From NCBI GenBank assembly GCA_047286215.1, contig JBJBBS010000001.1, positions 1,105,170-1,169,169 of the forward strand: DNA of 64,000 bases. The letters run 5' to 3'. The translations under genes and the position numbers were made by a program. Positions 3,053 through 29,612 of this stretch are shown here, in pieces (within the stretch, counting starts at the first letter, position 1; each line of letters opens with the position of its first letter). The notes under the pieces are model-generated. The model did no database searches. It was not told the DNA's origin and was given only the letters and a program-made list of their open reading frames with translations. The stretch comes from Synechococcus sp. GTDB taxonomy: Bacteria > Cyanobacteriota > Cyanobacteriia > PCC-6307 > Cyanobiaceae.

Positions 3053-3086
3053 TGTGCAACCTTCATTGATCAATGAACGCGGCTCA
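3053..3086. promoter_or_regulatory. Tandem MetR-like operator sites
   Basis: TGTGcaaccTTCA (3053-3065) and TGAAcgcggCTCA (3074-3086), 21 bp apart; the MetR consensus is TGAA-N5-TTCA. Confidence 0.45.
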
Positions 3087-3996
3087 TGAGCATGCCCTGC
3101 AAAGGGTTCATCTTCAGATCATTGTTGAAGTAGAGCGGCAGGGCTCATTGACCGCAGCAGCTGAAACCTTGTCATTGACGCAGTCGGCTCTTAGTCATTC
3201 AATCAAGAAACTTGAAAAACAACTTGGAGTCTCGATCTGGGTGCGTGATGGACGTCGTCTGCACCTCACTGCAGCAGGACACTATCTGTTGCTATTGGGT
3301 GAACGACTTCTCCCGCAGCTCTCACTGGCAGAGGTTCATCTTGCTCAGTATGCGAATGGTGTGCGTGGCACGTTGCGCGTGGGGATGGAATGTCACCCCT
3401 GTTATCAGTGGCTTCTGAAGGTGACTGAACCTTATTTGCGTTCCTATCCAGATGTGGATATCGATGTGATTCAAAAGTTTCAGTTTGGGGGTTTGGATGC
3501 ACTGGTCAATCACGAAATCGACGTGCTTGTTACCCCAGATCCTGTTTTCAAGAAGGGTCTTTATTTCGAACCTGTTTTTGATTATGAACAAGTTCTTGTG
3601 GTGTCTGCCGATCACCCGTTGACATCACAGTTATGGGTGAAGCCACAAGACTTGAAAGACGAGACTTTGTTCTCTTATCCCGTCAGTTTGGAGAGACTTG
3701 ATATTTATCGATCTTTTTTCACGCCTGCTGGGCTTGCGCCGGCTCGCCACAAGCGTGTTGAAACCACAGACATGATTTTGCAAATGGTGGCTTGTGGTCG
3801 GGGTGTGACTGCATTGCCGCGTTGGCTTGCGGAGGGCTATGCGGAATCCATGGATTTGGCGGTGCTTCGTTTGGGTGAAGACGGCATTGCCAAGCAGATC
3901 CATCTCGGTCTTCGAGATGAGGCTCTGAGATGTGACTACATGGCTGGTTTCGTGCAGGAGGCACAATCGTCAAGATCAGCGTCATCAACCGCTTGA
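3073..3996 (+). CDS. metR: LysR-family regulator, MetR type
   Basis: LysR HTH 'GSLTAAAETLSLTQSALSH' and MetR-typical 'LRVGMECHPCYQWL', 'RLDIY', 'QMVACGRGVTALPRW'. Confidence 0.8.
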   Translation: MNAAHEHALQRVHLQIIVEVERQGSLTAAAETLSLTQSALSHSIKKLEKQLGVSIWVRDGRRLHLTAAGHYLLLLGERLLPQLSLAEVHLAQYANGVRGTLRVGMECHPCYQWLLKVTEPYLRSYPDVDIDVIQKFQFGGLDALVNHEIDVLVTPDPVFKKGLYFEPVFDYEQVLVVSADHPLTSQLWVKPQDLKDETLFSYPVSLERLDIYRSFFTPAGLAPARHKRVETTDMILQMVACGRGVTALPRWLAEGYAESMDLAVLRLGEDGIAKQIHLGLRDEALRCDYMAGFVQEAQSSRSASSTA

Positions 3997-11115: not shown

Positions 11116-11469
11116 GTCTTGTTTGGGTGGGAATGAGTTTTTTGGGCAAAGGTTGGAGCTCAGTCATTCATTCCTCTTTTTTTGTGTGATTTGCAGTTGC
11201 GTGATTTCAACGATGAGGTGATGGCTTGTGGTGTCTTTGATCTTTCATTCCCATGGTTGAAAGCGTCTGCCTGTTGAGTTTGCAGGTGATTCGTGCTTCG
11301 GTTTTTTCAATGCCCTGGGTCATCGTTGTTGATGGACGGCAGGGGTTTGACTTTTGGCTGTCGCTATCCCTGGGCGTTTCCCGCTGAGGGACGACTGTTT
11401 CTTGATGGGCTCTGCCACTGTCCTCGAAAGCCAGAACACGATTCCTTAGTGTTCACTTCATCGATAACG

Positions 11470-12438
11470 ATGGAGTTCATCGACTTGGCGACGCGTCAAA
11501 TGTCTCTGGCCTCAGCTCTCGCTGGATTGCTGATGCTGTTGATGGCCTGCTCAGGTAAAGGACAGATCTCTTCAGAAGATCGTGCCGCCTCAGCCAGTGA
11601 CGCACGCCCCAAGGTGCTAACCACCTTCACCATCCTGGCCGACATGGCCCGCAATGTCGCTGGTGATCGTCTGCGGGTTGAGTCCATCACGAAGCCCGGT
11701 GCTGAAATTCATGGCTATGAATTCACGCCGAGTGACATCGAGCGAGCATCCGGAGCCGATCTGATCATCGAAAACGGATTGGGTTTGGAGCTCTGGGCCA
11801 GACGTTTCACTGCCGCCGCGGGCGATGTTCCGACGGTGACGTTGACCGATGGGATCGAACCACTCCTGATTGCGGAGGATGCATATGCCGGACGGCCCAA
11901 TCCCCATGCGTGGATGTCTCCCAAGGCGGCCCTGCATTACGTCGATCAGCTTGTGGTGACTTTTTCTGCGCTTGACCCTCAGGGCGCAGAGGTTTATCAG
12001 AGCAATGGTGAGGCCTATAAGTCGAGGCTTCGAGATCTTGATGATGAGCTCCGACGGTCCCTGGCGACGTTGCCTGAGAGTCAACGGCTGCTGGTTAGTT
12101 GTGAAGGTGCTTTGAGCTATCTCGCCCGTGATTACGGTCTTCAGGAGGCCTATCTCTGGCCGGTGAATGCCGAAAGCCAGATCACACCACGCCGCATGGC
12201 GAGACTGATTGATCGTGTAAAGCAGGATCAAGTCCCTGCTGTCTTCTGTGAAACGACCGTGAGCGATCAGCCTCAGCGTGAAGTGGCCCGAGCCGCGGGA
12301 ACTCGCTTCGGAGGCAGTTTCTTTGTGGACTCTTTGTCAGATGACAACGGTCCCGCCCCCACCCTGCTCGATCTCCATCGCCACAATGTGAAACTCATTC
12401 GAGCTGGGCTGGGCTCACCCGCCGATCCAACCCCATGA
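11470..12438 (+). CDS. mntC: Mn/Zn ABC transporter substrate-binding lipoprotein, MntC type
   Basis: Lipobox LMAC; ligands 'EIHGYE', 'NPHAW', 'CEGA', 'DSL' (His/His/Glu/Asp); start trimmed. Confidence 0.85.
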   Translation: MEFIDLATRQMSLASALAGLLMLLMACSGKGQISSEDRAASASDARPKVLTTFTILADMARNVAGDRLRVESITKPGAEIHGYEFTPSDIERASGADLIIENGLGLELWARRFTAAAGDVPTVTLTDGIEPLLIAEDAYAGRPNPHAWMSPKAALHYVDQLVVTFSALDPQGAEVYQSNGEAYKSRLRDLDDELRRSLATLPESQRLLVSCEGALSYLARDYGLQEAYLWPVNAESQITPRRMARLIDRVKQDQVPAVFCETTVSDQPQREVARAAGTRFGGSFFVDSLSDDNGPAPTLLDLHRHNVKLIRAGLGSPADPTP

Positions 12439-13181
12439 CGATCCGGATCGCAGCAGAGCAGCTCTGCGTTGACTACAACGGCACCGTCGCCCTTTACGAC
12501 GCTTCGCTGACTCTCCCGGCAGGGTGCATTTGCGGCTTGGTGGGCATGAACGGTGCTGGTAAATCGACGCTTTTTAAGGCGCTCACAGGATTTGTGCGCC
12601 CATCGAGAGGTCGGATTCGCATTAATGGCGCCAAGGTGGCGAGAGCCCAACGCGAGCAGGCAGTTGCATACGTCCCCCAAAGTGAAGGGATCGATTGCGA
12701 TTTTCCAGTATCTGTCTGGGATGTGGTGATGATGGGTCGCTATGGAGCCATGAATTGCCTGCGAATCCCCAGGGAGTCGGATCGCATGGCCGTTCGCGCT
12801 GCTCTCGAACGCGTTGATCTTCTTGATTTACGCGACCGACCTCTGGCGGCACTCTCCGGTGGGCAGCGCAAGCGCACTTTTCTTGCGCGAGCCATTGCAC
12901 AACGCGCTTCAGTGCTTTTGCTCGATGAGCCATTCAACGGCGTGGACGTCCGCACCGAAAAACTGATGGCAGAGCTCTTCCTCCAGTTCCGCAGTCAGGG
13001 GTGCTCGATGTTGATCTCCACCCATGACCTCAGCCATGTGCGTGATTTCTGCGACCTCGTTGTTTTGATCAACAAAACCGTGTTGGCCTATGGAGAGACC
13101 TCCGAGGTGTTCACCCCTGAAAACCTGTCGCTTGCCTTCGGTGGCGTGCCTCCCGATCTTTTGCGTGGACACCCGCAATAA
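12435..13181 (+). CDS. mntA: Metal ABC transporter ATP-binding protein
   Basis: Walker A GMNGAGKST, LSGGQRKR, LLLDEP; 4-bp overlap with mntC. Confidence 0.9.
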   Translation: MTIRIAAEQLCVDYNGTVALYDASLTLPAGCICGLVGMNGAGKSTLFKALTGFVRPSRGRIRINGAKVARAQREQAVAYVPQSEGIDCDFPVSVWDVVMMGRYGAMNCLRIPRESDRMAVRAALERVDLLDLRDRPLAALSGGQRKRTFLARAIAQRASVLLLDEPFNGVDVRTEKLMAELFLQFRSQGCSMLISTHDLSHVRDFCDLVVLINKTVLAYGETSEVFTPENLSLAFGGVPPDLLRGHPQ

Positions 13182-13272
13182 GCAAAGGGGGATCTGATTT
13201 TCAACAGACGAGCGTGAGTCCGCAGCTTTGAGCAACCTGCTGGGACAATGATTGTGAGCTGGAGCCTCTGTC

Positions 13273-14106
13273 TTGCTGGAGTTGCTGCTAGAACCCCTGC
13301 GCCATGACTTTATGGTTCGTGCGCTGTTGATCAGCGCATTGGTCGGTGGGGTCTGTGGCTTGCTCTCCTGTTACATGACCCTGAAGGGCTGGGCCCTGAT
13401 GGGGGACGCGGTTTCCCATGCTGTGCTCCCCGGGGTGGTGCTGGCTTATGCCCTCGGATTGCCGTTTTCGCTCGGTGCCTTTGTGTTCGGCGTTGGTTCG
13501 GTGGCGACCATCGGTTTTGTGAAGCAGAAATCTCGGATCAAGGAAGACACCGTGATTGGACTGGTTTTCACAGGCTTCTTTGCGCTGGGTTTGGTGTTGG
13601 TCTCGAAGACCCGCAGCAACATTGATCTCACCCATGTTTTGTTTGGAAACGTTCTCGGCATCTCAGCAGCAGACATCAGTCAGACCTGGTGGATCTGTTC
13701 AGTGGTGGTGGCATTGCTGTTGCTTTTCAGGCGAGATCTGCTGCTCTTCTGTTTCGATCCAACCCACGCCCGATCGATCGGTATCAACACCGGCTTTCTT
13801 CACTACCTCCTTCTATCGGTTCTCTCGCTTGCTGCCGTGGCCGGTCTTCAGACCGTTGGCATCATTTTGGTGGTAGCGATGTTGGTGACGCCCGGAGCCA
13901 CGGCGTATTTGCTCACGGATCGCTTTGATCGCATGACCTGGCTTGCTGTCGGCAGCAGTGTCTTGTCGAGTGTCTTCGGTGTTTATGTGAGCTACTGGAC
14001 CGATAGTTCGACGGCCGGTTGCATCGTGCTGGTGCAGACCGGACTGTTTCTACTGGCGTTCCTGTTGGCTCCTCAGCATGGAATTTTGCGCCGATCCTTG
14101 CCCTGA
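13273..14106 (+). CDS. mntB: Metal ABC transporter permease (ABC-3)
   Basis: 'LMGDAVSHAVLPG', 'EDTVIG', 'FCFDP..ARSIG'. Confidence 0.9.
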   Translation: MLELLLEPLRHDFMVRALLISALVGGVCGLLSCYMTLKGWALMGDAVSHAVLPGVVLAYALGLPFSLGAFVFGVGSVATIGFVKQKSRIKEDTVIGLVFTGFFALGLVLVSKTRSNIDLTHVLFGNVLGISAADISQTWWICSVVVALLLLFRRDLLLFCFDPTHARSIGINTGFLHYLLLSVLSLAAVAGLQTVGIILVVAMLVTPGATAYLLTDRFDRMTWLAVGSSVLSSVFGVYVSYWTDSSTAGCIVLVQTGLFLLAFLLAPQHGILRRSLP

Positions 14107-14206
14107 TCGGAGGCATAAACGTGGCGCCAAAAGTGCCAATCAGAGTCTGTGGTCGGTTGTCTTGGCCGTAGCTAAAAACGACTTATTGCTGCCTCACGGA
14201 CTACTG

Positions 14207-14791
14207 ATGACGCCCCGTTCCGTTTTTCTGGGTACTGCTTTGGCGGTCAGCTGTTGGTGTGCTGCTCCCCTTCAGGCTGCTCCTGATGTTCAGGTGTTCA
14301 GCACGCAAGTGACGAAAAGCGAGGTGGATCAGGCCCAAGACGCTTGGTGCAATGCTTTGGTGTCGATCAGTGCAGCCTTTCAGGCCGATGGCTTTGAAGC
14401 TGCAAAAGCCAAAGCTGGTGCTGTCATTGATGCCGCCTATGCCTATCACTACGGGCCTGTTGCATTCAAGCCGACGTTGGCTCTGGGTGAAAGCACCTTC
14501 CGGCCAACACGTGAAGGCGCCCTTGCTTACTTCGTCGGGCCGGATCCCGATATTTCCGCCTTCGGCGAGAACCAGGGATTTGCCACGTACCGACATTGGA
14601 CCCAGTGCGAAGTTGACAATGACGTCGTTCAACTGTTCGGAAACACTGTCAACACCATGGGCTTGGTGACCATTACTGATGCCAATGGAGACTCCAGTGT
14701 TGTCGAGAAGACATGGAGCTACCTCCGTGACCGAGACGGAAGTCTCAGGATCGTCTTGCACCATTCATCGGTGCCCATCGACGCTCGTTGA
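14207..14791 (+). CDS. Exported SnoaL/NTF2-fold protein, candidate iota-class carbonic anhydrase
   Basis: Signal peptide; 'FKPTL', 'RPTREGALAYFVG', 'GFA', C-terminal 'LRIVLHHSSVP'. Confidence 0.7.
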   Translation: MTPRSVFLGTALAVSCWCAAPLQAAPDVQVFSTQVTKSEVDQAQDAWCNALVSISAAFQADGFEAAKAKAGAVIDAAYAYHYGPVAFKPTLALGESTFRPTREGALAYFVGPDPDISAFGENQGFATYRHWTQCEVDNDVVQLFGNTVNTMGLVTITDANGDSSVVEKTWSYLRDRDGSLRIVLHHSSVPIDAR

Positions 14792-14862
14792 TTCCACAGC
14801 GGTCGTCAAAGGCCGCTCCCATGGTGGAGAATGAACCCATCACCCCCTTGTTGATCAGCCTG

Positions 14863-15129
14863 ATGCTCCTGTCCAACCGTGCCATCATCCGGGGCTCCTT
14901 GGCCGTTGCGGCTGCTTTCACCCTTGTGGGAGCACAGTCGGTGAGCGCTCACCACGTCCCCGGCGACGACCACACCGGAACTCTTTTGACTGCGGATCCC
15001 TCTGCAACAGCCCAGGGCATGAAAACCATGTTCCCCACGAAAGCGGAAGCCGAAGCTGCGGCTAGCAACTTCGATTGTGAAGGTGCCCACCAGATGGGAG
15101 ACATGTGGATGCCTTGCTCTGAGCACTGA
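14863..15129 (+). CDS. Exported DUF3721-domain protein
   Basis: Signal peptide ending VSA|HHVPGDDH; C-terminal 'TKAEAEAAASNFDCEGAHQMGDMWMPC'. Confidence 0.75.
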   Translation: MLLSNRAIIRGSLAVAAAFTLVGAQSVSAHHVPGDDHTGTLLTADPSATAQGMKTMFPTKAEAEAAASNFDCEGAHQMGDMWMPCSEH

Positions 15130-15371
15130 TTTCTGAAGCCAACGCTCAATTGCGAGCGATTATCGACCTGCCTCAACCCCTTGATTGCGCAAGGCGTTGA
15201 GGCTTTTTGATGGCAACAAGACCGTGGTTCTTCGCAACGGATGGCTCCCGTCCACCTGGCCCTGATGGCTAATCCAGACACGCCTTCACGGCTATTTATG
15301 CAACGTTGGTGACGATGGCTGGAGACCCTGGAAAGATCAGCCAATAATCGGGTTTAACGACATCGATTGCC

Positions 15372-15713
15372 GTGCGCTGCCTGCTCTCGCTTGCTCTCGC
15401 TTTGCTCATCAGTTTTTGGTCTCCGGTTCAGGTGTTCGCTGCTGATCTCACCCGTGGTGCTCAGCTGTTCAACTTGAACTGCGCTGCCTGCCATGCGGGG
15501 GGCGCCAATGTGCTGAAGAGCGAACGTTCCCTCAGCCAGGATGACCTTCAGGCCTATCTCCCCAACTATCTGAAGGAGCATGAATCAGCGATCGTCGCTC
15601 AGGTGACCTACGGACGCAACGCGATGCCTGCCTTCCTCGATATTTTGAGCGAGAAGGAAATCGAAGACGTTGCTGCCTACGTGGAAGATCAGTCCTTGAA
15701 CGGTTGGAGTTAA
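15372..15713 (+). CDS. petJ: Cytochrome c6 (class I)
   Basis: Signal peptide, CAACH heme motif, 'QVTYGRNAMPAF' axial Met. Confidence 0.85.
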   Translation: MRCLLSLALALLISFWSPVQVFAADLTRGAQLFNLNCAACHAGGANVLKSERSLSQDDLQAYLPNYLKEHESAIVAQVTYGRNAMPAFLDILSEKEIEDVAAYVEDQSLNGWS

Positions 15714-15726
15714 GCCTCGAGGTTGA

Positions 15727-16686
15727 ATGACGCGTCTCGCTACAGGATGGGCCATTTTTCAAGGCCTGCTGATTGAGGCGCTTCCCTTTTTGTTGCTGGG
15801 GGTGACCATTGCCGGGCTGGCTCGTTGGCTCGTCCCCCAGTCCACCTGGGTTCGTCGTCTTCCGCGTCATCCTCTGCTGGCACCGTTAGTTGGGGCTCTC
15901 TTAGGCTTTGCTCTGCCGGCTTGTGAATGCGGCAATGTTCCTGTCGCAAGACGACTTTTGGCCAGCGGGGCCCCGCTTGGAACCGGGTTCGGTTTTTTGT
16001 TTGCCGCGCCTGTTCTCAACCCCATTGTTTTGGCCAGCACCTGGGCTGCCTTCCCCGACAAGACCTGGCTGCTGTGGGCGCGTCCCGCTGGAGCCTTTTT
16101 GATTGCACTGTCATTAAGTGCACTGCTCGGTTTGTTGCCCGAAGCCAAGCTGCTTGAAACAGCATTGCTGGAAGAGCGCCGGATGAGTCAGCCCCTGTCG
16201 AGCGTCGGCCTACTCGAGCGCCGTGGTGGAGTGTTGGGGAGTGCTCCGTCTCCCGCTGGGAAAAGTGACGACAACCCTGGGATTACCCCGCGTCTTCTCA
16301 TCCAGCACAGCACCAAAGAATTTCTCAGCCTCCTCACCTTGTTGGTGTTAGGGAGTGCCTTGGCTGCGGCGGTTCAGACCTGGCTGCCTCGCAGTTGGCT
16401 ATTGGCCCTTGGCAGTGCACCGACGTTGTCGGTGATTGCGTTGATGCTCCTGGCGTTGGTGGTGTCGGTTTGCTCGAGTGTTGATGCTTTTTTAGCGCTT
16501 GGGTTTGCGGCTCAGGTCACGCCCGGTGCTCTGCTGGCTTTCCTGCTGTTGGGCCCTGTCGTGGATCTCAAGCTCGCTGGCTTATTCACGGTGTTGCTTA
16601 CGCCGCGAGCCATCGCGATCACGGCGGTCTCGGCGTCGCTCATGGTGCTGCTGATTGGCCAGTGGGTGAACCTTTTACAGCTGTGA
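15727..16686 (+). CDS. Permease, DUF318/ArsP_1 family
   Basis: 'EALPFLLLG', 'PACECGNVPV', 'CSSVDAF', 'LGPVVDLK'. Confidence 0.85.
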   Translation: MTRLATGWAIFQGLLIEALPFLLLGVTIAGLARWLVPQSTWVRRLPRHPLLAPLVGALLGFALPACECGNVPVARRLLASGAPLGTGFGFLFAAPVLNPIVLASTWAAFPDKTWLLWARPAGAFLIALSLSALLGLLPEAKLLETALLEERRMSQPLSSVGLLERRGGVLGSAPSPAGKSDDNPGITPRLLIQHSTKEFLSLLTLLVLGSALAAAVQTWLPRSWLLALGSAPTLSVIALMLLALVVSVCSSVDAFLALGFAAQVTPGALLAFLLLGPVVDLKLAGLFTVLLTPRAIAITAVSASLMVLLIGQWVNLLQL

Positions 16687-16701: not shown

Positions 16702-17391
16702 ATGACCTTCAGGCTGCGATTCAGGCGATCAGCTCTTCTCCCTCCTCTGGTTGTGGGGCTATGGGGGTGGGTGCTGCTGTGGAGCACCCTTTCGGGGAGA
16801 CTCGATCTTCTATTGAATGCCGCCTTTCATCCCGTCGTTGGCCTTGCGGGTGTGGTGTTGCTTGTGCTGGCATTGCTGCAGTTGCGTTGGGCCGGACACC
16901 ATCGCAACGTCCCCTCACCCAGGGGATGGTTGTTCTCAGGGTTCGTGGCTGTGGTGATTTTGCTGGTTCCTCCAGCCCCGTCCTTCAGCGACCTAGCCGC
17001 CAGCCGTCCCGACAGCTTTCCCGAAGCTCCTCGACTCAGTTTTTTCCTTCCTCCTGAGCAGCGAACGTTGACGGAATGGGTGCGGTTGCTGCGCAGCCAG
17101 CCTGATCCCGAACTGCATGCCGGTGACCCGGTGCGTATCAGTGGTTTTGTGCTGGCGCGTCCAGGAGAACCTCCCCAACTGGCGCGGCTCACCGTGCGTT
17201 GTTGCTTGGCAGATGCCACACCTGCTGGTCTTCTTATCGATTGGCCTTTGGATGCCAATCCAGAGGCCGATCAGTGGCTTGCCATTGAAGGAACGTTGAT
17301 TGTGCAGGAGCGTGATGGCGAACCGGTGAATGTGGTTCAACCCACAAGCATTCGCGCGATTCCGAGACCGGAGAGGCCGCTCGAGCCATGA
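16702..17391 (+). CDS. TIGR03943/DUF1980 family membrane protein
   Basis: Three N-terminal TMs, 'LARLTVRCCLADA', 'QWLAIEG'. Confidence 0.85.
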   Translation: MTFRLRFRRSALLPPLVVGLWGWVLLWSTLSGRLDLLLNAAFHPVVGLAGVVLLVLALLQLRWAGHHRNVPSPRGWLFSGFVAVVILLVPPAPSFSDLAASRPDSFPEAPRLSFFLPPEQRTLTEWVRLLRSQPDPELHAGDPVRISGFVLARPGEPPQLARLTVRCCLADATPAGLLIDWPLDANPEADQWLAIEGTLIVQERDGEPVNVVQPTSIRAIPRPERPLEP

Positions 17392-18773
17392 GGCCATCGC
17401 GTTCCACCGCGCCCTTTCGTCTGTTGCTGGGCTGTCTGGCAGTTCTCTCGGCCGTGGCTGTTGTGCAGCAGCAGGTTCTTCTGCGACGACCGCCTCGTTT
17501 GCAGGCTGTGTCGATTCAGCCGATTCGATCCGGAGCGGCGGCCTTGGACGTTGTGTTTAGCCGGCCGATGGATCAAGCCTCCGTGGCTGAGAGTGTTTTG
17601 GATCCTGATCTCGCTCACCGCTGGTTTGGGGGGCAGGACCGACTGCGCCTCCTTATTGCTCCGCAACAGGCGGTGCAAAATCCTTTGCGCTTGGATGTGT
17701 TGGGACGGGATCTCAGACAGCTGGCATTGCCGCCCCATCAACTCTGGTGGGATCCCAGACCCCATCTCCTTGCTGTTGTGCCGACCGCAGAGGGCGAGAG
17801 CCTGCAGATGCGTTTAAGGGACGGGCAATGGCGCCCCCTGGCACCTGAGCAACGGACCATTCTCCAAATTGAACCCCTGGGCAATGGTGCTGGTGTTGCC
17901 CTGGTGAGTGATGACGACGAGGCCCGTCAGCGTGTGCTTTTCCGCGCCTTGGATCAACGCGCCTTGAGCGAGCGTCAACGTGGCTTGGGTGACCCAGAAC
18001 TTGGAGTGCTTGAAGAGCTCGAATCTGGTGCTCCAGGATCCTTGCTGTTCGCTCATCTCAGCAGCAATCAGCGCGGTGATCTGCTGGTGCAACTTGGAGG
18101 CTTTGATCCAGAGATTGATCGCATCTGGATTCAGTCGGAGCAGCAAAAGACGCGAGCTCTGGAGCTCGAACCGAGTGGTGCTTTGCGTTTGCTTCCCGAT
18201 GGCAGTGGTTTGGTGATGCTGTCGTACGACGGTTTGGAATTGCTTTCGCTTGATGGCTTGAACGAGCCCTCCATGCGTCAGTCGCTGCCTGGACGGCGTG
18301 AGCTGAAAGCCTTCTGTTCCGGTTCCGGTCGAGCACTGTTGATTCGTCATTGGCCGGATTACAGGCGATCGATCGAGCTTGTGATTCCTTCCCGGCCGCC
18401 GCGCGAGGTGTGGTTGGGTGAGGCTGGCGTGATGGCAGCAGCTTGCGATACAGCTGGCGATCGGCTGTGGGTGGTGCTCAGAGAAGCGGGCCGCGGCACA
18501 GAGGATCGCTTGCTGCTCCTTGACAGTGAAGGCAACCAACTCACCAGTCGTGCCTTAGGCGAATGGCGTCTTACCTCAGGTGCTGAATTGGATTACGACC
18601 CGGTGAGCAACCGATTGCTCACCGTGGTGAAAACGTCGGATGCATCCAGCGGCCGGGTGGCATTGATCGACGCCAACAGCCTTGAACTTGAGGTGCTTAA
18701 CCAGCCGGCCGTGTTGGCGCGTTGGTTGCCTGCTGGCGGGACGTTGTCTGACGTTTCGCCCCTCTCTCGATAG
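17388..18773 (+). CDS. Membrane-anchored protein with an Ig-like domain and a probable beta-propeller
   Basis: N-terminal TM, 'LDVVFSRPMD' Ig-like motif, repeated beta-rich blades; 4-bp overlap with DUF1980 gene. Confidence 0.7.
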   Translation: MRPSRSTAPFRLLLGCLAVLSAVAVVQQQVLLRRPPRLQAVSIQPIRSGAAALDVVFSRPMDQASVAESVLDPDLAHRWFGGQDRLRLLIAPQQAVQNPLRLDVLGRDLRQLALPPHQLWWDPRPHLLAVVPTAEGESLQMRLRDGQWRPLAPEQRTILQIEPLGNGAGVALVSDDDEARQRVLFRALDQRALSERQRGLGDPELGVLEELESGAPGSLLFAHLSSNQRGDLLVQLGGFDPEIDRIWIQSEQQKTRALELEPSGALRLLPDGSGLVMLSYDGLELLSLDGLNEPSMRQSLPGRRELKAFCSGSGRALLIRHWPDYRRSIELVIPSRPPREVWLGEAGVMAAACDTAGDRLWVVLREAGRGTEDRLLLLDSEGNQLTSRALGEWRLTSGAELDYDPVSNRLLTVVKTSDASSGRVALIDANSLELEVLNQPAVLARWLPAGGTLSDVSPLSR

Positions 18774-18794: not shown

Positions 18795-19508
18795 TTGCCC
18801 ATGGGGGTTGCCCCCCTCGTTGCGCAAGGTCTCACCCTCTCCTATGGCGAGCGCACCGTTCTTGACGATGTGTCGCTCACGCTGCAGAGCGGCACGTTGA
18901 CAGCTCTAGTGGGTGCCAATGGTGCAGGCAAGTCCACGCTGCTGCACTTGTTGCAGGGTCGTCTCTCCCCCACCTCTGGTCAGGTTGCCTGCGATGGCAT
19001 GCCGATCCAGGGTTGTCGCGATCGGGTGGTGTTGATGCCTCAGCGCGGTCGGATCGACTGGTCTTTCCCCATCACCGTGAGTGAGTTCGTCGAGCTTGGC
19101 GCAATGTCCCATCGATCCTTTGGGTGTTGCGATCGCGAGGCGGCATTGCAACGGGTGGGTCTTGGTGCTTTGGCCGGCCGACGTCTGGATGCGCTTTCTG
19201 GAGGCCAGCAGCAACGGGCTCTTCTGGCACGCACCTTGGTGCAGCCTTCGCGTGTGTTGCTGCTGGATGAACCCTGTGCAGCCATTGATCCTCCAACGCG
19301 CGATCAGTTGTTGCTGCTCATGCGCCAGCTAGCTGATGCGGGTCAGACCCTTCTCGTTAGCAGTCATGACTGGGGAACGGCATTGGATCAATACGACCGA
19401 GTGATTGTTCTCGATGGCCGTGTGCTGGCCGATGGTCCCCCAGAACAGGTGCGCCAGCTGCTCGGACATCAGATCAATCCAGGAGCGCAGTGTCATGACT
19501 GCGCTTGA
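18795..19508 (+). CDS. Zn/Mn ABC transporter ATP-binding protein (ZnuC-like)
   Basis: GANGAGKST, LSGGQQQR, LLLDEP; C-terminal 'CHDCA'. Confidence 0.9.
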   Translation: MPMGVAPLVAQGLTLSYGERTVLDDVSLTLQSGTLTALVGANGAGKSTLLHLLQGRLSPTSGQVACDGMPIQGCRDRVVLMPQRGRIDWSFPITVSEFVELGAMSHRSFGCCDREAALQRVGLGALAGRRLDALSGGQQQRALLARTLVQPSRVLLLDEPCAAIDPPTRDQLLLLMRQLADAGQTLLVSSHDWGTALDQYDRVIVLDGRVLADGPPEQVRQLLGHQINPGAQCHDCA

Positions 19509-20277
19509 TCTTTGGTTGATCCCTTTGCTCATGGCGTTGCTTGTGGGCATTGTGTGCCCTGTTACCGGCACCTTGCTGGTGACACAGCGCCGAGTGCTGC
19601 AGGCCAACTTGATTTCCCATGCTGTGCTGCCCGGTGTGGCGATCGCTGTCGCGATGGGAATCGACCCAGCCATTGGCGGCGTCATCAGTGGGTTGCTGGG
19701 ATCCTTGATTTCTGAGCGCTTGCAGCGGGCGCAACCGGCCGGACAAGAAGCCGTGATCAACACCGTGCTCGCAGGTTTTTTGGGTCTCGGAGTGCTCTTG
19801 ATTCCGTTGCTGGATCTGCGCCTTGATCTCGAAGCCTTGTTGTTTGGTGATCTGTTGATCGTCGATTGGTACGACTTAACCCGGGTGTTGGTGGCTGCGG
19901 CGGCATTGTTGCTGCTGCTGCTCACCCGCTATTCACAGCTTGTTTTCGTTGGGGTGGACCCTGAGGGGGCCGTCGCAGCTGGATTGCCGGTCAAGACGTT
20001 GCAGTTGATTCAGGCCCTGGTGACCTCCATGGTGATTGTCAGCGCGATGGCCGCTGTGGGTGTGATTCTTGTGATCGGTTTGTTGTGTGCTCCCGTGCTG
20101 CCAGGGCTTTGGAGGGTGAGCAGTCTGCGGGCCGCGATGGTGCAGTCGGCGTTGACGGGATTGGCGTTGAGTGCTGTTGGCTTTTTGTTGGCCGTTCCAC
20201 TCAATTTGCCTCCAGGCCCCCTGATCGGCGTGGTTTGCATGCTGCTGCTCTACCTTCCTCGCCTCAGGCCGGCCTAA
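19495..20277 (+). CDS. Zn/Mn ABC transporter permease (ZnuB-like)
   Basis: 'LISHAVLPG', 'LEALLFGD', ABC-3 TM pattern. Confidence 0.9.
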   Translation: MTALDLWLIPLLMALLVGIVCPVTGTLLVTQRRVLQANLISHAVLPGVAIAVAMGIDPAIGGVISGLLGSLISERLQRAQPAGQEAVINTVLAGFLGLGVLLIPLLDLRLDLEALLFGDLLIVDWYDLTRVLVAAAALLLLLLTRYSQLVFVGVDPEGAVAAGLPVKTLQLIQALVTSMVIVSAMAAVGVILVIGLLCAPVLPGLWRVSSLRAAMVQSALTGLALSAVGFLLAVPLNLPPGPLIGVVCMLLLYLPRLRPA

Positions 20278-20300
20278 TCATGATGCGCTGGACGGCGTCG

Positions 20301-20319
20301 TGAGAATGATTATCATTCG
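20301..20319. promoter_or_regulatory. Zur box
   Basis: TGAGAATGATTATCATTCG, near-palindromic, about 20 bp upstream of the SBP gene. Confidence 0.75.
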
Positions 20320-20340
20320 TGGAGTTAAAAAAAGATTCTC

Positions 20341-21234
20341 ATGTCTGTCGCGGTCCTTACATCAGCAGCAGGGATGCTGGTGGCAGCGGCGGCCTCCACG
20401 CCCACCATCGTTGCCGCTGATGGCATCCTTTGCGATCTCACAAAGACGTTGGTGGCCAATGACGCCAAGGTGATTTGCTTGATCCCCGCTGGCGCGGATC
20501 CCCACACCTTGGCGTTGCGTCCTGCAGACCGCACCAACCTGGGAAAGGCCAATCTGGTGCTTCTCAACGGTTACAACCTCACCCCAGCATTGAATGGCGT
20601 CAAGGCGGGTGGGCCTGTTGTTTCGCTGGGTGAGATTGCCCTTCCGAGCAATCCTCAAAACGATCCCCATCTTTGGCACGACCCAGCCAATGTCGAGGCG
20701 ATGGCCAATGCCAGTGTTCTGAAGTTCAAGCCCTTATTCAGCGACCAGCAAATCGCAGCCATCAATCAGCGGCGTGTGGCTATGGCTGGCGTCTTGAACT
20801 CACTGGGTAGTTGGACGGCTCAACAGGTTGCGACGGTCCCTGAATCCCACAGGGTGTTGGTGACAGGACACCGGGCCTATTCGTTTCTTTCGAAGCGCTA
20901 TGGCATTCGTGAGCTGCCAGTGATCGATGAGTATGCGACAGGAGGTCGCATGCGCCCTTCCAGTCTCAACGCCATCAGCAAAGCGATCAAAGCCTCGGGA
21001 ACCAAGGTGATTTTCCCGGAAGCCTTGCCACCTTCCAAGACCATGCGGCGCATCAGTCGTGCCAGCGGGATTCCTTTAGCAAGCAAGGCTTTGGTCGCTG
21101 ACGGCTTGGCTCCTGGGGAAAGCCTGATCCAAACGGCAACAAGCAATGTTTGCACCTTTGTGGTGGCTCAAGGAGGTAGCTGTGATCAGCAAGCTGCTGC
21201 TCAGCTTCAGCAGCGTTGGTCTGCAATTCGTTGA
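20341..21234 (+). CDS. znuA: Zn ABC transporter substrate-binding protein (ZnuA-like)
   Basis: Three-His ligand set 'DPHTL', 'DPHLWHDP', 'GHRAY'. Confidence 0.75.
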   Translation: MSVAVLTSAAGMLVAAAASTPTIVAADGILCDLTKTLVANDAKVICLIPAGADPHTLALRPADRTNLGKANLVLLNGYNLTPALNGVKAGGPVVSLGEIALPSNPQNDPHLWHDPANVEAMANASVLKFKPLFSDQQIAAINQRRVAMAGVLNSLGSWTAQQVATVPESHRVLVTGHRAYSFLSKRYGIRELPVIDEYATGGRMRPSSLNAISKAIKASGTKVIFPEALPPSKTMRRISRASGIPLASKALVADGLAPGESLIQTATSNVCTFVVAQGGSCDQQAAAQLQQRWSAIR

Positions 21235-21278
21235 GTAACGATCACTTTTAAATCCGTTAATTCCCTTTTTATTTCGTG

Positions 21279-22394
21279 ATGAACACCTTCAAGTTTCGCC
21301 TGCTGAAAGCCGCTTCACTCCTTGCACTGCTTGCAGCTGGCGACTCAGCTCTCCAACAGGCGCGCGCGCACGGTTCTGCTGGGGGAGAAGAGCCTTTGCC
21401 TCCTGGAGAGTTCCGTGCCATTCCTGTGATCACCATCGAGGGTCACGGTGGTTTTGAGAACAATCTGGAGGGGCAACCTCAGCACTACGCCATCGATGGT
21501 CAATTTGGTGTGGTGTTGGAGTGGGGACTTCCTAATGATGGAAGTTTCGCGATTGAAGCGTCTCTCGGCCCCTCGCTTGTTTGGGGAGAGGCCGAACACT
21601 TCTATGGCCGTGTGCATGTTGAATCCGGTGATCATGGTGATCACGACGATCATGATGATCACGAGGAGCATGAAGATCATGCGGAAGATCATGACGACCA
21701 CGAAGGTCATGAGGATCATGCGGAAGATCATGATGATCACGATGAGCATGAAGAAGCTCACGGTGATCACGACGAGCATGATGACCATGAGGAAGGGCAT
21801 GGCGATCACGCCGGGCATGCAGGCCATGGCCATGGATCAGGGGCCCCTTTCCGACGCACGGACATCAAGGGATATCTCCAAGCCCGTTATCAACCCAATG
21901 ATCGATTGGAGTTGTCGATCGCTTGGATGCCCTATTACGTCACAGGCGAGGGCGAGGATTTTGGGACTGGACTCAAAAATGAGGTTGGCGCCAAGCTGGT
22001 CTATGCCTTTGGCGATGGTGATGTGAACTTCGCTCTGGGCGATGGCCTAGAGGATGTGATTGATGGTGTTTTTGTTTCCGTTGAAAACCGGACGGGTTGG
22101 GAAACGGACGGCACTTACATCGGTAATTACACCGACCTCTGGCCTGGCTTTGGTTTCAACATTGATCTCTTGAATATCACCCTTTCTGGTGGTCCTCGCT
22201 TCTACATGCCAGGGAGTTACTCGGGATTATCCCAGCGTACTGATTGGGGCGGTGAGATTGAATTGGAATACCCTGTGGCTGAGAATGTTTCTCTCTTCGC
22301 TCACTGGGAGCCTGTCTACAGCACCGAAGGTGGTTCAGGTTGGGGCGTCGGTTTCCAGCATCATGTGGGTACAGGCGTGACAATCGCGTTCTGA
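21279..22394 (+). CDS. His/Asp-rich exported protein, predicted outer-membrane beta-barrel
   Basis: Signal peptide ARA|H, amphipathic beta-strand pattern, internal ~70-aa His/Asp/Glu tract, terminal 'VGTGVTIAF'. Confidence 0.7.
   Translation: MNTFKFRLLKAASLLALLAAGDSALQQARAHGSAGGEEPLPPGEFRAIPVITIEGHGGFENNLEGQPQHYAIDGQFGVVLEWGLPNDGSFAIEASLGPSLVWGEAEHFYGRVHVESGDHGDHDDHDDHEEHEDHAEDHDDHEGHEDHAEDHDDHDEHEEAHGDHDEHDDHEEGHGDHAGHAGHGHGSGAPFRRTDIKGYLQARYQPNDRLELSIAWMPYYVTGEGEDFGTGLKNEVGAKLVYAFGDGDVNFALGDGLEDVIDGVFVSVENRTGWETDGTYIGNYTDLWPGFGFNIDLLNITLSGGPRFYMPGSYSGLSQRTDWGGEIELEYPVAENVSLFAHWEPVYSTEGGSGWGVGFQHHVGTGVTIAF
21621..21836 (+). repeat. Low-complexity (D/E)xH coding repeat with a ~39-bp internal tandem duplication
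   Basis: GAAGATCATGCGGAAGATCATGA near 21672 and GAGGATCATGCGGAAGATCATGA near 21711. Confidence 0.9.
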
Positions 22395-29274: not shown

Positions 29275-29293
29275 AAAATGATAATCATTCTCG
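29275..29293. promoter_or_regulatory. Zur box
   Basis: AAAATGATAATCATTCTCG between divergent genes. Confidence 0.7.
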
Positions 29294-29426: not shown

Positions 29427-29612
29427 ATGATGAATCAAATCATGCCTGCTGCAATGGCTTGTGCTTGCCCGGAGTGTGTCTGTGACGTGCAGCCTTCCAC
29501 GGCTGTGGTTCGTGACGGTCAACACTTTTGCTCAGATGCTTGTGCAACAGGCCACCCCAATCATGAACCTTGTCATGGCAATGGTTCCTGTGGCTGTAAG
29601 TGCTCAGATTGA
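29427..29612 (+). CDS. bmtA: Bacterial metallothionein (BmtA/SmtA)
   Basis: 'CACPECVC', 'FCSDACATGH', 'CHGNGSCGCKC'. Confidence 0.95.
   Translation: MMNQIMPAAMACACPECVCDVQPSTAVVRDGQHFCSDACATGHPNHEPCHGNGSCGCKCSD

Follow-up and report, generated by a model that had tools for sequence, protein, structure and literature searches.

A putative exported, metal-independent iota-class carbonic anhydrase encoded behind mntCAB in a Synechococcus trace-metal island

The carbonic anhydrase gene and the surrounding island

The window (the whole stretch of Synechococcus sp. DNA that was analysed, 64,000 nt in length) carries a gene for a putative carbonic anhydrase (CA) at 14207..14791 on the plus strand, within a trace-metal island. 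Upstream on the same strand are three genes of an ABC importer: mntC (11470..12438), for the Mn-binding lipoprotein, mntA (12435..13181), for the ABC ATPase, and mntB (13273..14106), for an ABC-3 permease. These are preceded by sodC and by genes for DUF924 and DUF2256 proteins. The maximal mntC frame opens at 11293, and the likely start is the ATG at 11470, which gives a product with the lipobox LLMAC. MntC is about 60% identical to the Mn-binding protein of Synechocystis (1xvl, 3ujp and 4irm, E ~1e-99), and its metal-ligand and disulfide segments are the same (AEIHGYE, NPHAWMSP, VSCEGA, FCE and VDSLS), while Synechocystis ZnuA (1pq4) is matched at E 4.5e-17 only. The mntA ATPase and the mntB permease fit Mn/Fe-type models, and mntB is 85–95% identical to the picocyanobacterial homologues listed (91% in RS9909, 87% in CC9311). 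Judged by these matches the transporter is a genuine MntCAB Mn importer, in agreement with the first-pass annotation of this DNA.

Downstream of the CA gene, again on the plus strand, is a conserved neighbour coding for a small, predicted exported DUF3721 protein (14821..15129), which has a signal peptide, a His-rich N-terminal segment (HHVPGDDH) and a C-terminal motif of the CxGxHxMGxxWMPC type (FDCEGAHQMGDMWMPCSEH). Its gene directly follows mntB, or CA where CA is present, and the protein may be a metal-binding partner of the Mn importer in the periplasm. Further plus-strand members of the island are a conserved cytochrome c6 (PetJ-like) paralogue (15372..15713), an ArsP_1 permease (15727-16686) with its TIGR03943/DUF1980 partner (16702-17391), and a conserved 461-aa protein (17388-18773) that has no Pfam or NCBIfam family match. 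The last of these is kept in every syntenic locus, between the DUF1980 subunit and a second ABC transporter. That transporter (18795..21234, plus strand) belongs to cluster A-I and consists of an ATPase, a permease and a solute-binding protein (SBP; 20341-21234, best family match AztC). Directly 3' of the SBP gene, at 21276-22394 on the plus strand, a beta-barrel-like outer-membrane protein with a His/Asp/Glu-rich insert of about 70 aa (GDHGDHDDHDDHEEHEDH...GHAGHGHG) is encoded, a candidate Zn-scavenging protein. A Cys/His-rich ORF of 61 aa (29427-29612, plus strand), of the bacterial metallothionein (BmtA/SmtA) type, lies 15 kb from the CA gene. A LysR-family gene at 3073-3996 was considered as a regulator of the CO2-concentrating mechanism and set aside, as it is MetR-like instead. 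A composition profile gave no hint of recent transfer, with no GC anomaly at the CA gene.

The CA ORF codes for 194 aa. The motifs KPTL (aa 88-91), FRPTREGALAYFVG (aa 98-111) and HHSS (aa 185-188, seven residues short of the C-terminus) all occur in it, together with a signal peptide, as had been read from the sequence at first pass. The distance to mntB, put there at about 100 bp, is exactly 100 nt (14107..14206). The start codon at 14207 agrees with the N-termini of 34 homologues. A longer in-frame ORF from 14078 was rejected, since it overlaps mntB and has no counterpart or conservation elsewhere, and an opposite-strand ORF of 187 aa (14201..14764) was dismissed as a shadow ORF.

The N-terminus, MTPRSVFLGTALAVSCWCAAPLQA followed by AP, resembles a Sec signal peptide when judged by eye: the n-region is positive, the core is hydrophobic, and LQA forms an A-x-A-like site. 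The predicted leader comprises aa 1-24 (nt 14207-14278) and the mature domain nt 14279-14788, and equivalent leaders are present in all 35 aligned homologues. In the same alignment a pair of cysteines is conserved and clade-specific, C48 being invariant and C134 retained in at least 90% of the sequences, and this pair would fit an oxidising, extracytoplasmic compartment. Cyanobacterial Sec signals can also send proteins to the thylakoid lumen. The periplasm is the most likely site of the protein, as predicted from its Sec-type export signal, with the thylakoid lumen as the alternative.

Family, active site and predicted fold

The first-pass annotation had placed the protein among the iota-class carbonic anhydrases, and specifically in the COG4875/LCIP63 type. 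The class is borne out by sequence and by predicted structure, but the subtype is not. When PDB sequences were searched with phmmer, the CA matched Anabaena all2909 (7c5v/7c5w) over aa 30-192 at E 1.6e-46, with 51% identity (7C5V), and Bigelowiella natans Bn86287 (7c5x/7c5y) at E 1.6e-67, with all three repeats of the latter matched. The COG4875-like structure 3h51 was matched only by the C-terminal 36 residues (aa 154-189, E 0.13). The NCBIfam model NF047901 ('metal-independent carbonic anhydrase') aligns over profile positions 44-203 of 205 with E 1.4e-55, at a score of 187.8 bits against a strict NCBI equivalog cutoff of 350. Homologues 58–94% identical to the CA carry PF27546 (MICAH) in precomputed tables; the Pfam copy that was searched with the CA itself gave 0 hits and predates that family. 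An exact-protein lookup returned no protein identical to that of the window, the closest relative being the metagenomic protein P0001 (94%). In public records the homologues stand as 'hypothetical protein', and the remark at first pass that such proteins are often mis-annotated was therefore apt.

all2909 and Bn86287 are the founding COG4337 metal-independent iota-CAs (PMC8132391). The characterised enzymes of this type bind no Mg, Ca, Mn, Co, Zn or Cd, remain active after EDTA/urea or PDA treatment, and in the presence of Zn appeared to be less active (PMC8132391). In all2909, replacement by Ala of any one of Thr106, Tyr124, His197 or Ser199 abolishes activity (PMC8132391). A residue-by-residue alignment pairs these with T90, Y108, H185 and S187 of the window CA (codons 14474-14476, 14528-14530, 14759-14761 and 14765-14767, plus strand), and all four are invariant in 35 homologues.

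The AlphaFold2 model (pLDDT 85.7) is a helix-helix-sheet cone in which the leader is of low confidence. With this model as query, the best Foldseek match was 7c5v_B (E 3.8e-17, target TM 0.90, 51% identity), followed by generic NTF2-like proteins, and a COG4875 structure was matched only at the level of the fold (E 3e-4, 20% identity). The profile and structure comparison that had been proposed at first pass thus upholds the iota-CA assignment and turns against COG4875. The fold is predicted to be a cone-shaped, NTF2-like alpha+beta domain like that of all2909. By homology, the protein is assigned to the iota-class carbonic anhydrases of the COG4337/MICAH subtype, and not to COG4875/LCIP63.

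The window CA and all2909 share a single domain of about 160 aa after a signal peptide, the same predicted fold, the KPT, AYFVG and HHSS motifs, and the essential Thr, Tyr, His and Ser. They differ in that all2909 has Gly/Val where the marine CAs have C48/C134, and in a 3-4 residue insertion in the PDPDISAFG loop of the marine clade. The window CA is further set apart by falling under the NCBI equivalog cutoff and by its genomic slot in a trace-metal island. Every repeat of Bn86287 (7C5X/7C5Y) can be aligned to aa 34-191 (E 1e-19 to 1e-22), and the catalytic residues are kept, although that enzyme is eukaryotic, plastid-targeted and built of three tandem domains. The COG4875 enzymes TpLCIP63, from a diatom, and BteCA-iota, from Burkholderia, resemble the window CA in their NTF2-like fold, their C-terminal HHSS and, in bacterial forms, a signal peptide, but belong to another domain family and are reported to be Mn- or Zn-dependent.

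Prokaryotic iota-CA genes were stated in 2021 to be single-domain (PMC8132391). Bacterial proteins with two tandem MICAH domains were encountered here, in Synechococcus sp. KORDI-100 (L009, 6001-7005; P0063) and also as P0002 and P0075; each domain has KPT, YFVG and HHSS, and the annotated N-terminus lies mid-domain.

Conservation of the slot between mntB and DUF3721

Exact-protein lookups found the order MntC-MntA-MntB-MICAH-DUF3721-...-ABC2 to be identical in GCA_047286345, in a 63-kb metagenome contig and in the MIT S9509 group. In the last of these (L004-L006), an insertion carrying an SGL-family gene parts mntCA from mntB, and the mntB-CA junction is retained. The island is therefore plastic, with insertions parting its genes. 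About 1 kb separates mntB from CA in another locus (L018).

The synteny survey suggested at first pass was carried out with the island proteins as tblastn queries on 92 loci, of which a metagenome scan had supplied 80. The mntB gene lies directly upstream of CA in 23 of 76 scorable loci, namely in 22 of the 37 with a CA at least 56% identical to that of the window, and in one of the 39 with a CA below this value. DUF3721 follows CA directly in 19 of 67 scorable loci, and the loci with the full mntB-CA-DUF3721 order are nearly all close marine relatives. Elsewhere the CA gene occurs in unrelated contexts, such as Prochlorococcaceae MAGs (3' of a small GerE regulator), KORDI-100 and a Binatia MAG. 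A scan of genome contigs with the CA protein found one partial locus only, in an Aphanothece MAG (L001), without mnt genes upstream.

CA thus has a fixed place between mntB and DUF3721 in one clade of marine picocyanobacteria, but the slot may also be empty. Strains CC9311 and RS9909 have the same island without CA, with gaps of 22 nt and 0 nt, respectively, between mntB and DUF3721, which makes the CA gene an accessory cassette at the mntB-DUF3721 junction and not a constant partner of the transporter. Hirakawa et al. list CC9311 and WH8020 among carriers of COG4875, and CC9605 and WH7805 among the marine Synechococcus that carry COG4337 (PMC8132391). The idea that the COG4875 gene fills the CA slot in CC9311 was ruled out, the slot there being empty. 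In RS9909 (L094), the mntB-DUF3721 pair has neither mntC nor mntA directly upstream.

In a neighbour-joining tree the mnt-linked CAs form one main clade, and a second small mnt-linked group (L012, L032 and L029) falls with unlinked, partly non-cyanobacterial sequences. Between the window and L015/L016 (6001-6576), the CAs are 61% identical, and the flanking proteins MntB, MntA, ArsP and DUF3721 are 98%, 96%, 94% and 87% identical. These values point to divergent CA alleles occupying one slot. The metagenomic P0001 CA is 94% identical to that of the window, though L015, which has the closest flanks, reaches only 61%.

Transcription, zinc control and the proposed role

The spacer between mntB and CA was scanned for sigma-70 promoters and terminators, and contained no terminator-like site and no convincing -35/-10 pair. 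It does include a block (14165-14193, GCCGTAGCTAAAAACGACTTATTGCTGCC) that is conserved across syntenic loci with the consensus GATCTAGCTAAnnAGCGCTTAGTGACGA; this is common to the spacers of 19 distinct loci (66-118 nt long), lies about 10-40 nt before the ATG, and in some loci has a palindromic TCTAGCTAGA core. It is a candidate promoter/operator. A position weight matrix of the block matched nowhere else in the 64-kb window, and a block that is unique there gives no evidence for a regulon. No conserved structure was predicted by RNAalifold on 13 spacers. Footprinting upstream of mntC gave sequences too divergent for an operator to be recognised, with only a TAnnnT-like element shared about 20-25 nt before the start codon.

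On transcription, public sequencing runs are the most informative source, though an indirect one. The 31-mers of the CA/DUF3721 region (13800-15129) occur in at least 20 RNA runs, almost all with a metatranscriptomic label, and 270 sampled mntCAB words were absent from every RNA run in the index. When eight metatranscriptomes were compared with positions 11200-16000, near-identical contigs covered CA in six, DUF3721 in five, petJ in three and mntCAB in none, the evidence consisting of assembled, unstranded contigs, which are a poor gauge of expression. The longest CA contig starts at 14181, within the spacer. DNA runs of S2 and S12, the same samples as two of the RNA runs, cover the whole of 11200-16000 at an even 2-5x, with contigs spanning the mntB-CA junction, so the CA signal in RNA is not due to carry-over of DNA. 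Together these data argue that CA and DUF3721 mRNAs are far more abundant in the sea than mntCAB mRNA. They also argue for a separate CA promoter, or for processing of a longer transcript, and some low-level read-through from mntB may occur. The co-expression of CA with Mn uptake that the first-pass annotation had supposed does not agree with this distribution, nor with the CA-less islands of CC9311 and RS9909.

Two further details of the RNA contigs concern the neighbouring genes. DUF3721 shows the greatest contig depth in one metatranscriptome (10.7 in X24). An RNA contig of X23 (15378-15895) spans the 13-nt petJ-arsP_1 junction, which suggests a common transcript for the cytochrome c6 paralogue and the ArsP_1/DUF1980 permease genes.

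Control by Zn was addressed by searching the window for the cyanobacterial 7-1-7 Zur palindrome, matches with at most two to three mismatches being counted as Zur-like. A box, TGAGAATGATTATCA, lies at 20301-20315, about 26-39 nt upstream of the second SBP gene, and is identical in every syntenic locus (L002-L006, L012, L015, L016, L018, L022, L025 and L093). In many loci a second box, TGAGAATCGTTCTCA, is found 15 nt upstream of the ATPase gene of the same transporter, which is probably a Zur-regulated Zn importer on the strength of these sites. A Zur-like box, TGATAATCATTCTCG, occurs at 29279-29293, about 135 nt upstream of the metallothionein ORF, an arrangement like the published Zur-bmtA arrangement of WH8102. 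The SBP and metallothionein genes marked by these two sites of the window represent both kinds of target that experiments have established for Zur in WH8102 (PMC9337993). Three weak matches at 21629-21739 were discarded as belonging to the coding repeat of the His-rich outer-membrane protein. Upstream of mntC, CA, DUF3721, petJ and arsP, the window has no Zur-like box, and none was found at these genes in some 20 syntenic loci.

The reading that we favour, and hold to be likely, is that the gene encodes a Sec-exported, single-domain, metal-independent iota-CA, carried as an accessory cassette and transcribed mainly from its own promoter. The enzyme would hydrate CO2 to HCO3- without a metal, outside the cytoplasm, by means of a Thr/Tyr/His/Ser site such as that described for all2909. 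Incoming or leaked CO2 would in this way be turned into bicarbonate for re-uptake by the bicarbonate transporters of the cell, or the reaction might serve in pH control. This physiological role, the conversion of CO2 to bicarbonate outside the cytoplasm, is the weakest step of the scheme. EcaA (alpha) and EcaB (beta) of beta-cyanobacteria are likewise exported and have a proposed, unproven role in the uptake of inorganic carbon, but they have unrelated folds and are Zn enzymes. Within the plastic island, the cassette would be driven mainly by a promoter of its own in the 66-118 nt spacer, and the CA would be neither a functional subunit nor an obligate co-transcript of the Mn importer.

The link to Zn limitation drawn at first pass corresponds to another explanation, in which the enzyme is under Zur control and is induced when Zn runs short, to stand in for a Zn-dependent external CA as other metal-free paralogues regulated by Zur do. 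In its favour, the island also includes a ZnuA-like SBP with a Zur box and a His-rich outer-membrane protein, and bmtA lies 15 kb off. The conserved boxes, however, stand at the second SBP and ATPase genes, and their absence near CA leaves a CA induced by Zn limitation without sequence support. The experimentally defined Zur regulon of WH8102, too, consists only of znuABC, two neighbouring genes, and bmtA with its neighbour (PMC9337993). This explanation is accordingly rated as improbable. By analogy with the assayed COG4337 enzymes, the CA would spare Zn only trivially, in needing none.

It seems rather less probable again that the metal-free CA and DUF3721 are linked to the Mn importer as a conserved extracytoplasmic module with high expression, and a bicarbonate, proton or pH effect that aids Mn2+ capture by MntC or its delivery to photosystem II is rated no higher. 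Cluster A-I Mn SBPs are not known to require bicarbonate. What speaks for such a module is that mntB-DUF3721 is the most conserved pair of the island, that CA fills the slot between them in lineages whose DNA is only about 70–82% identical, and that at least two divergent CA lineages occupy it. That CA has stayed at this precise position while the lineages diverged could point to a functional connection with Mn handling and, if the module is real, the slot would be kept filled by selection and not by history. On the other hand, strains with an empty slot retain mntCAB and DUF3721, the CA homologues of other picocyanobacteria and of other bacteria have unrelated gene neighbourhoods, and the CA transcripts are uncoupled from those of mntCAB.

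A Mn-preferring, COG4875/LCIP63-like periplasmic CA, co-transcribed with mntCAB and supplied with its cofactor by Mn uptake, is very unlikely. The gene does follow mntB on one strand at a distance of 100 nt, a terminator is not predicted between them, the adjacency is conserved in 23 loci, and a diatom iota-CA was reported to be reactivated by Mn (PMC8132391). Against this, the protein belongs to COG4337, and Mn was absent from all2909 and Bn86287 by ICP-OES, with no activation by 2 mM Mn (PMC8132391), so that the Mn rationale for the adjacency to mntB falls. In addition, the abundance of CA RNA does not follow that of mntCAB, and CC9311, which has its COG4875 gene elsewhere, has the same island without CA. 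Least probable of all is an exported NTF2-like protein with a function other than that of a CA, such as a binding protein or another hydratase, since the NF047901 score under the equivalog cutoff, a fold common to many non-CA enzymes and binders, and the modest activity of all2909 (16.7 WAU/mg; PMC8132391) are to be set against 51% identity to an assayed enzyme and four essential residues that are invariant in the clade.

The family and its presence in marine Synechococcus have been known since 2021 (PMC8132391). What the present analysis adds is the right subtype, a slot between mntB and DUF3721 that is conserved yet optional, field evidence of transcription independent of mntCAB, and the absence of a Zur box; these additions are modest and leave current understanding unchanged. 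Marine picocyanobacteria account for a large share of ocean carbon fixation, in waters that are very poor in Zn. A metal-free CA at work outside the cytoplasm, with transcripts that are easy to find in metatranscriptomes, could matter to their inorganic-carbon economy.
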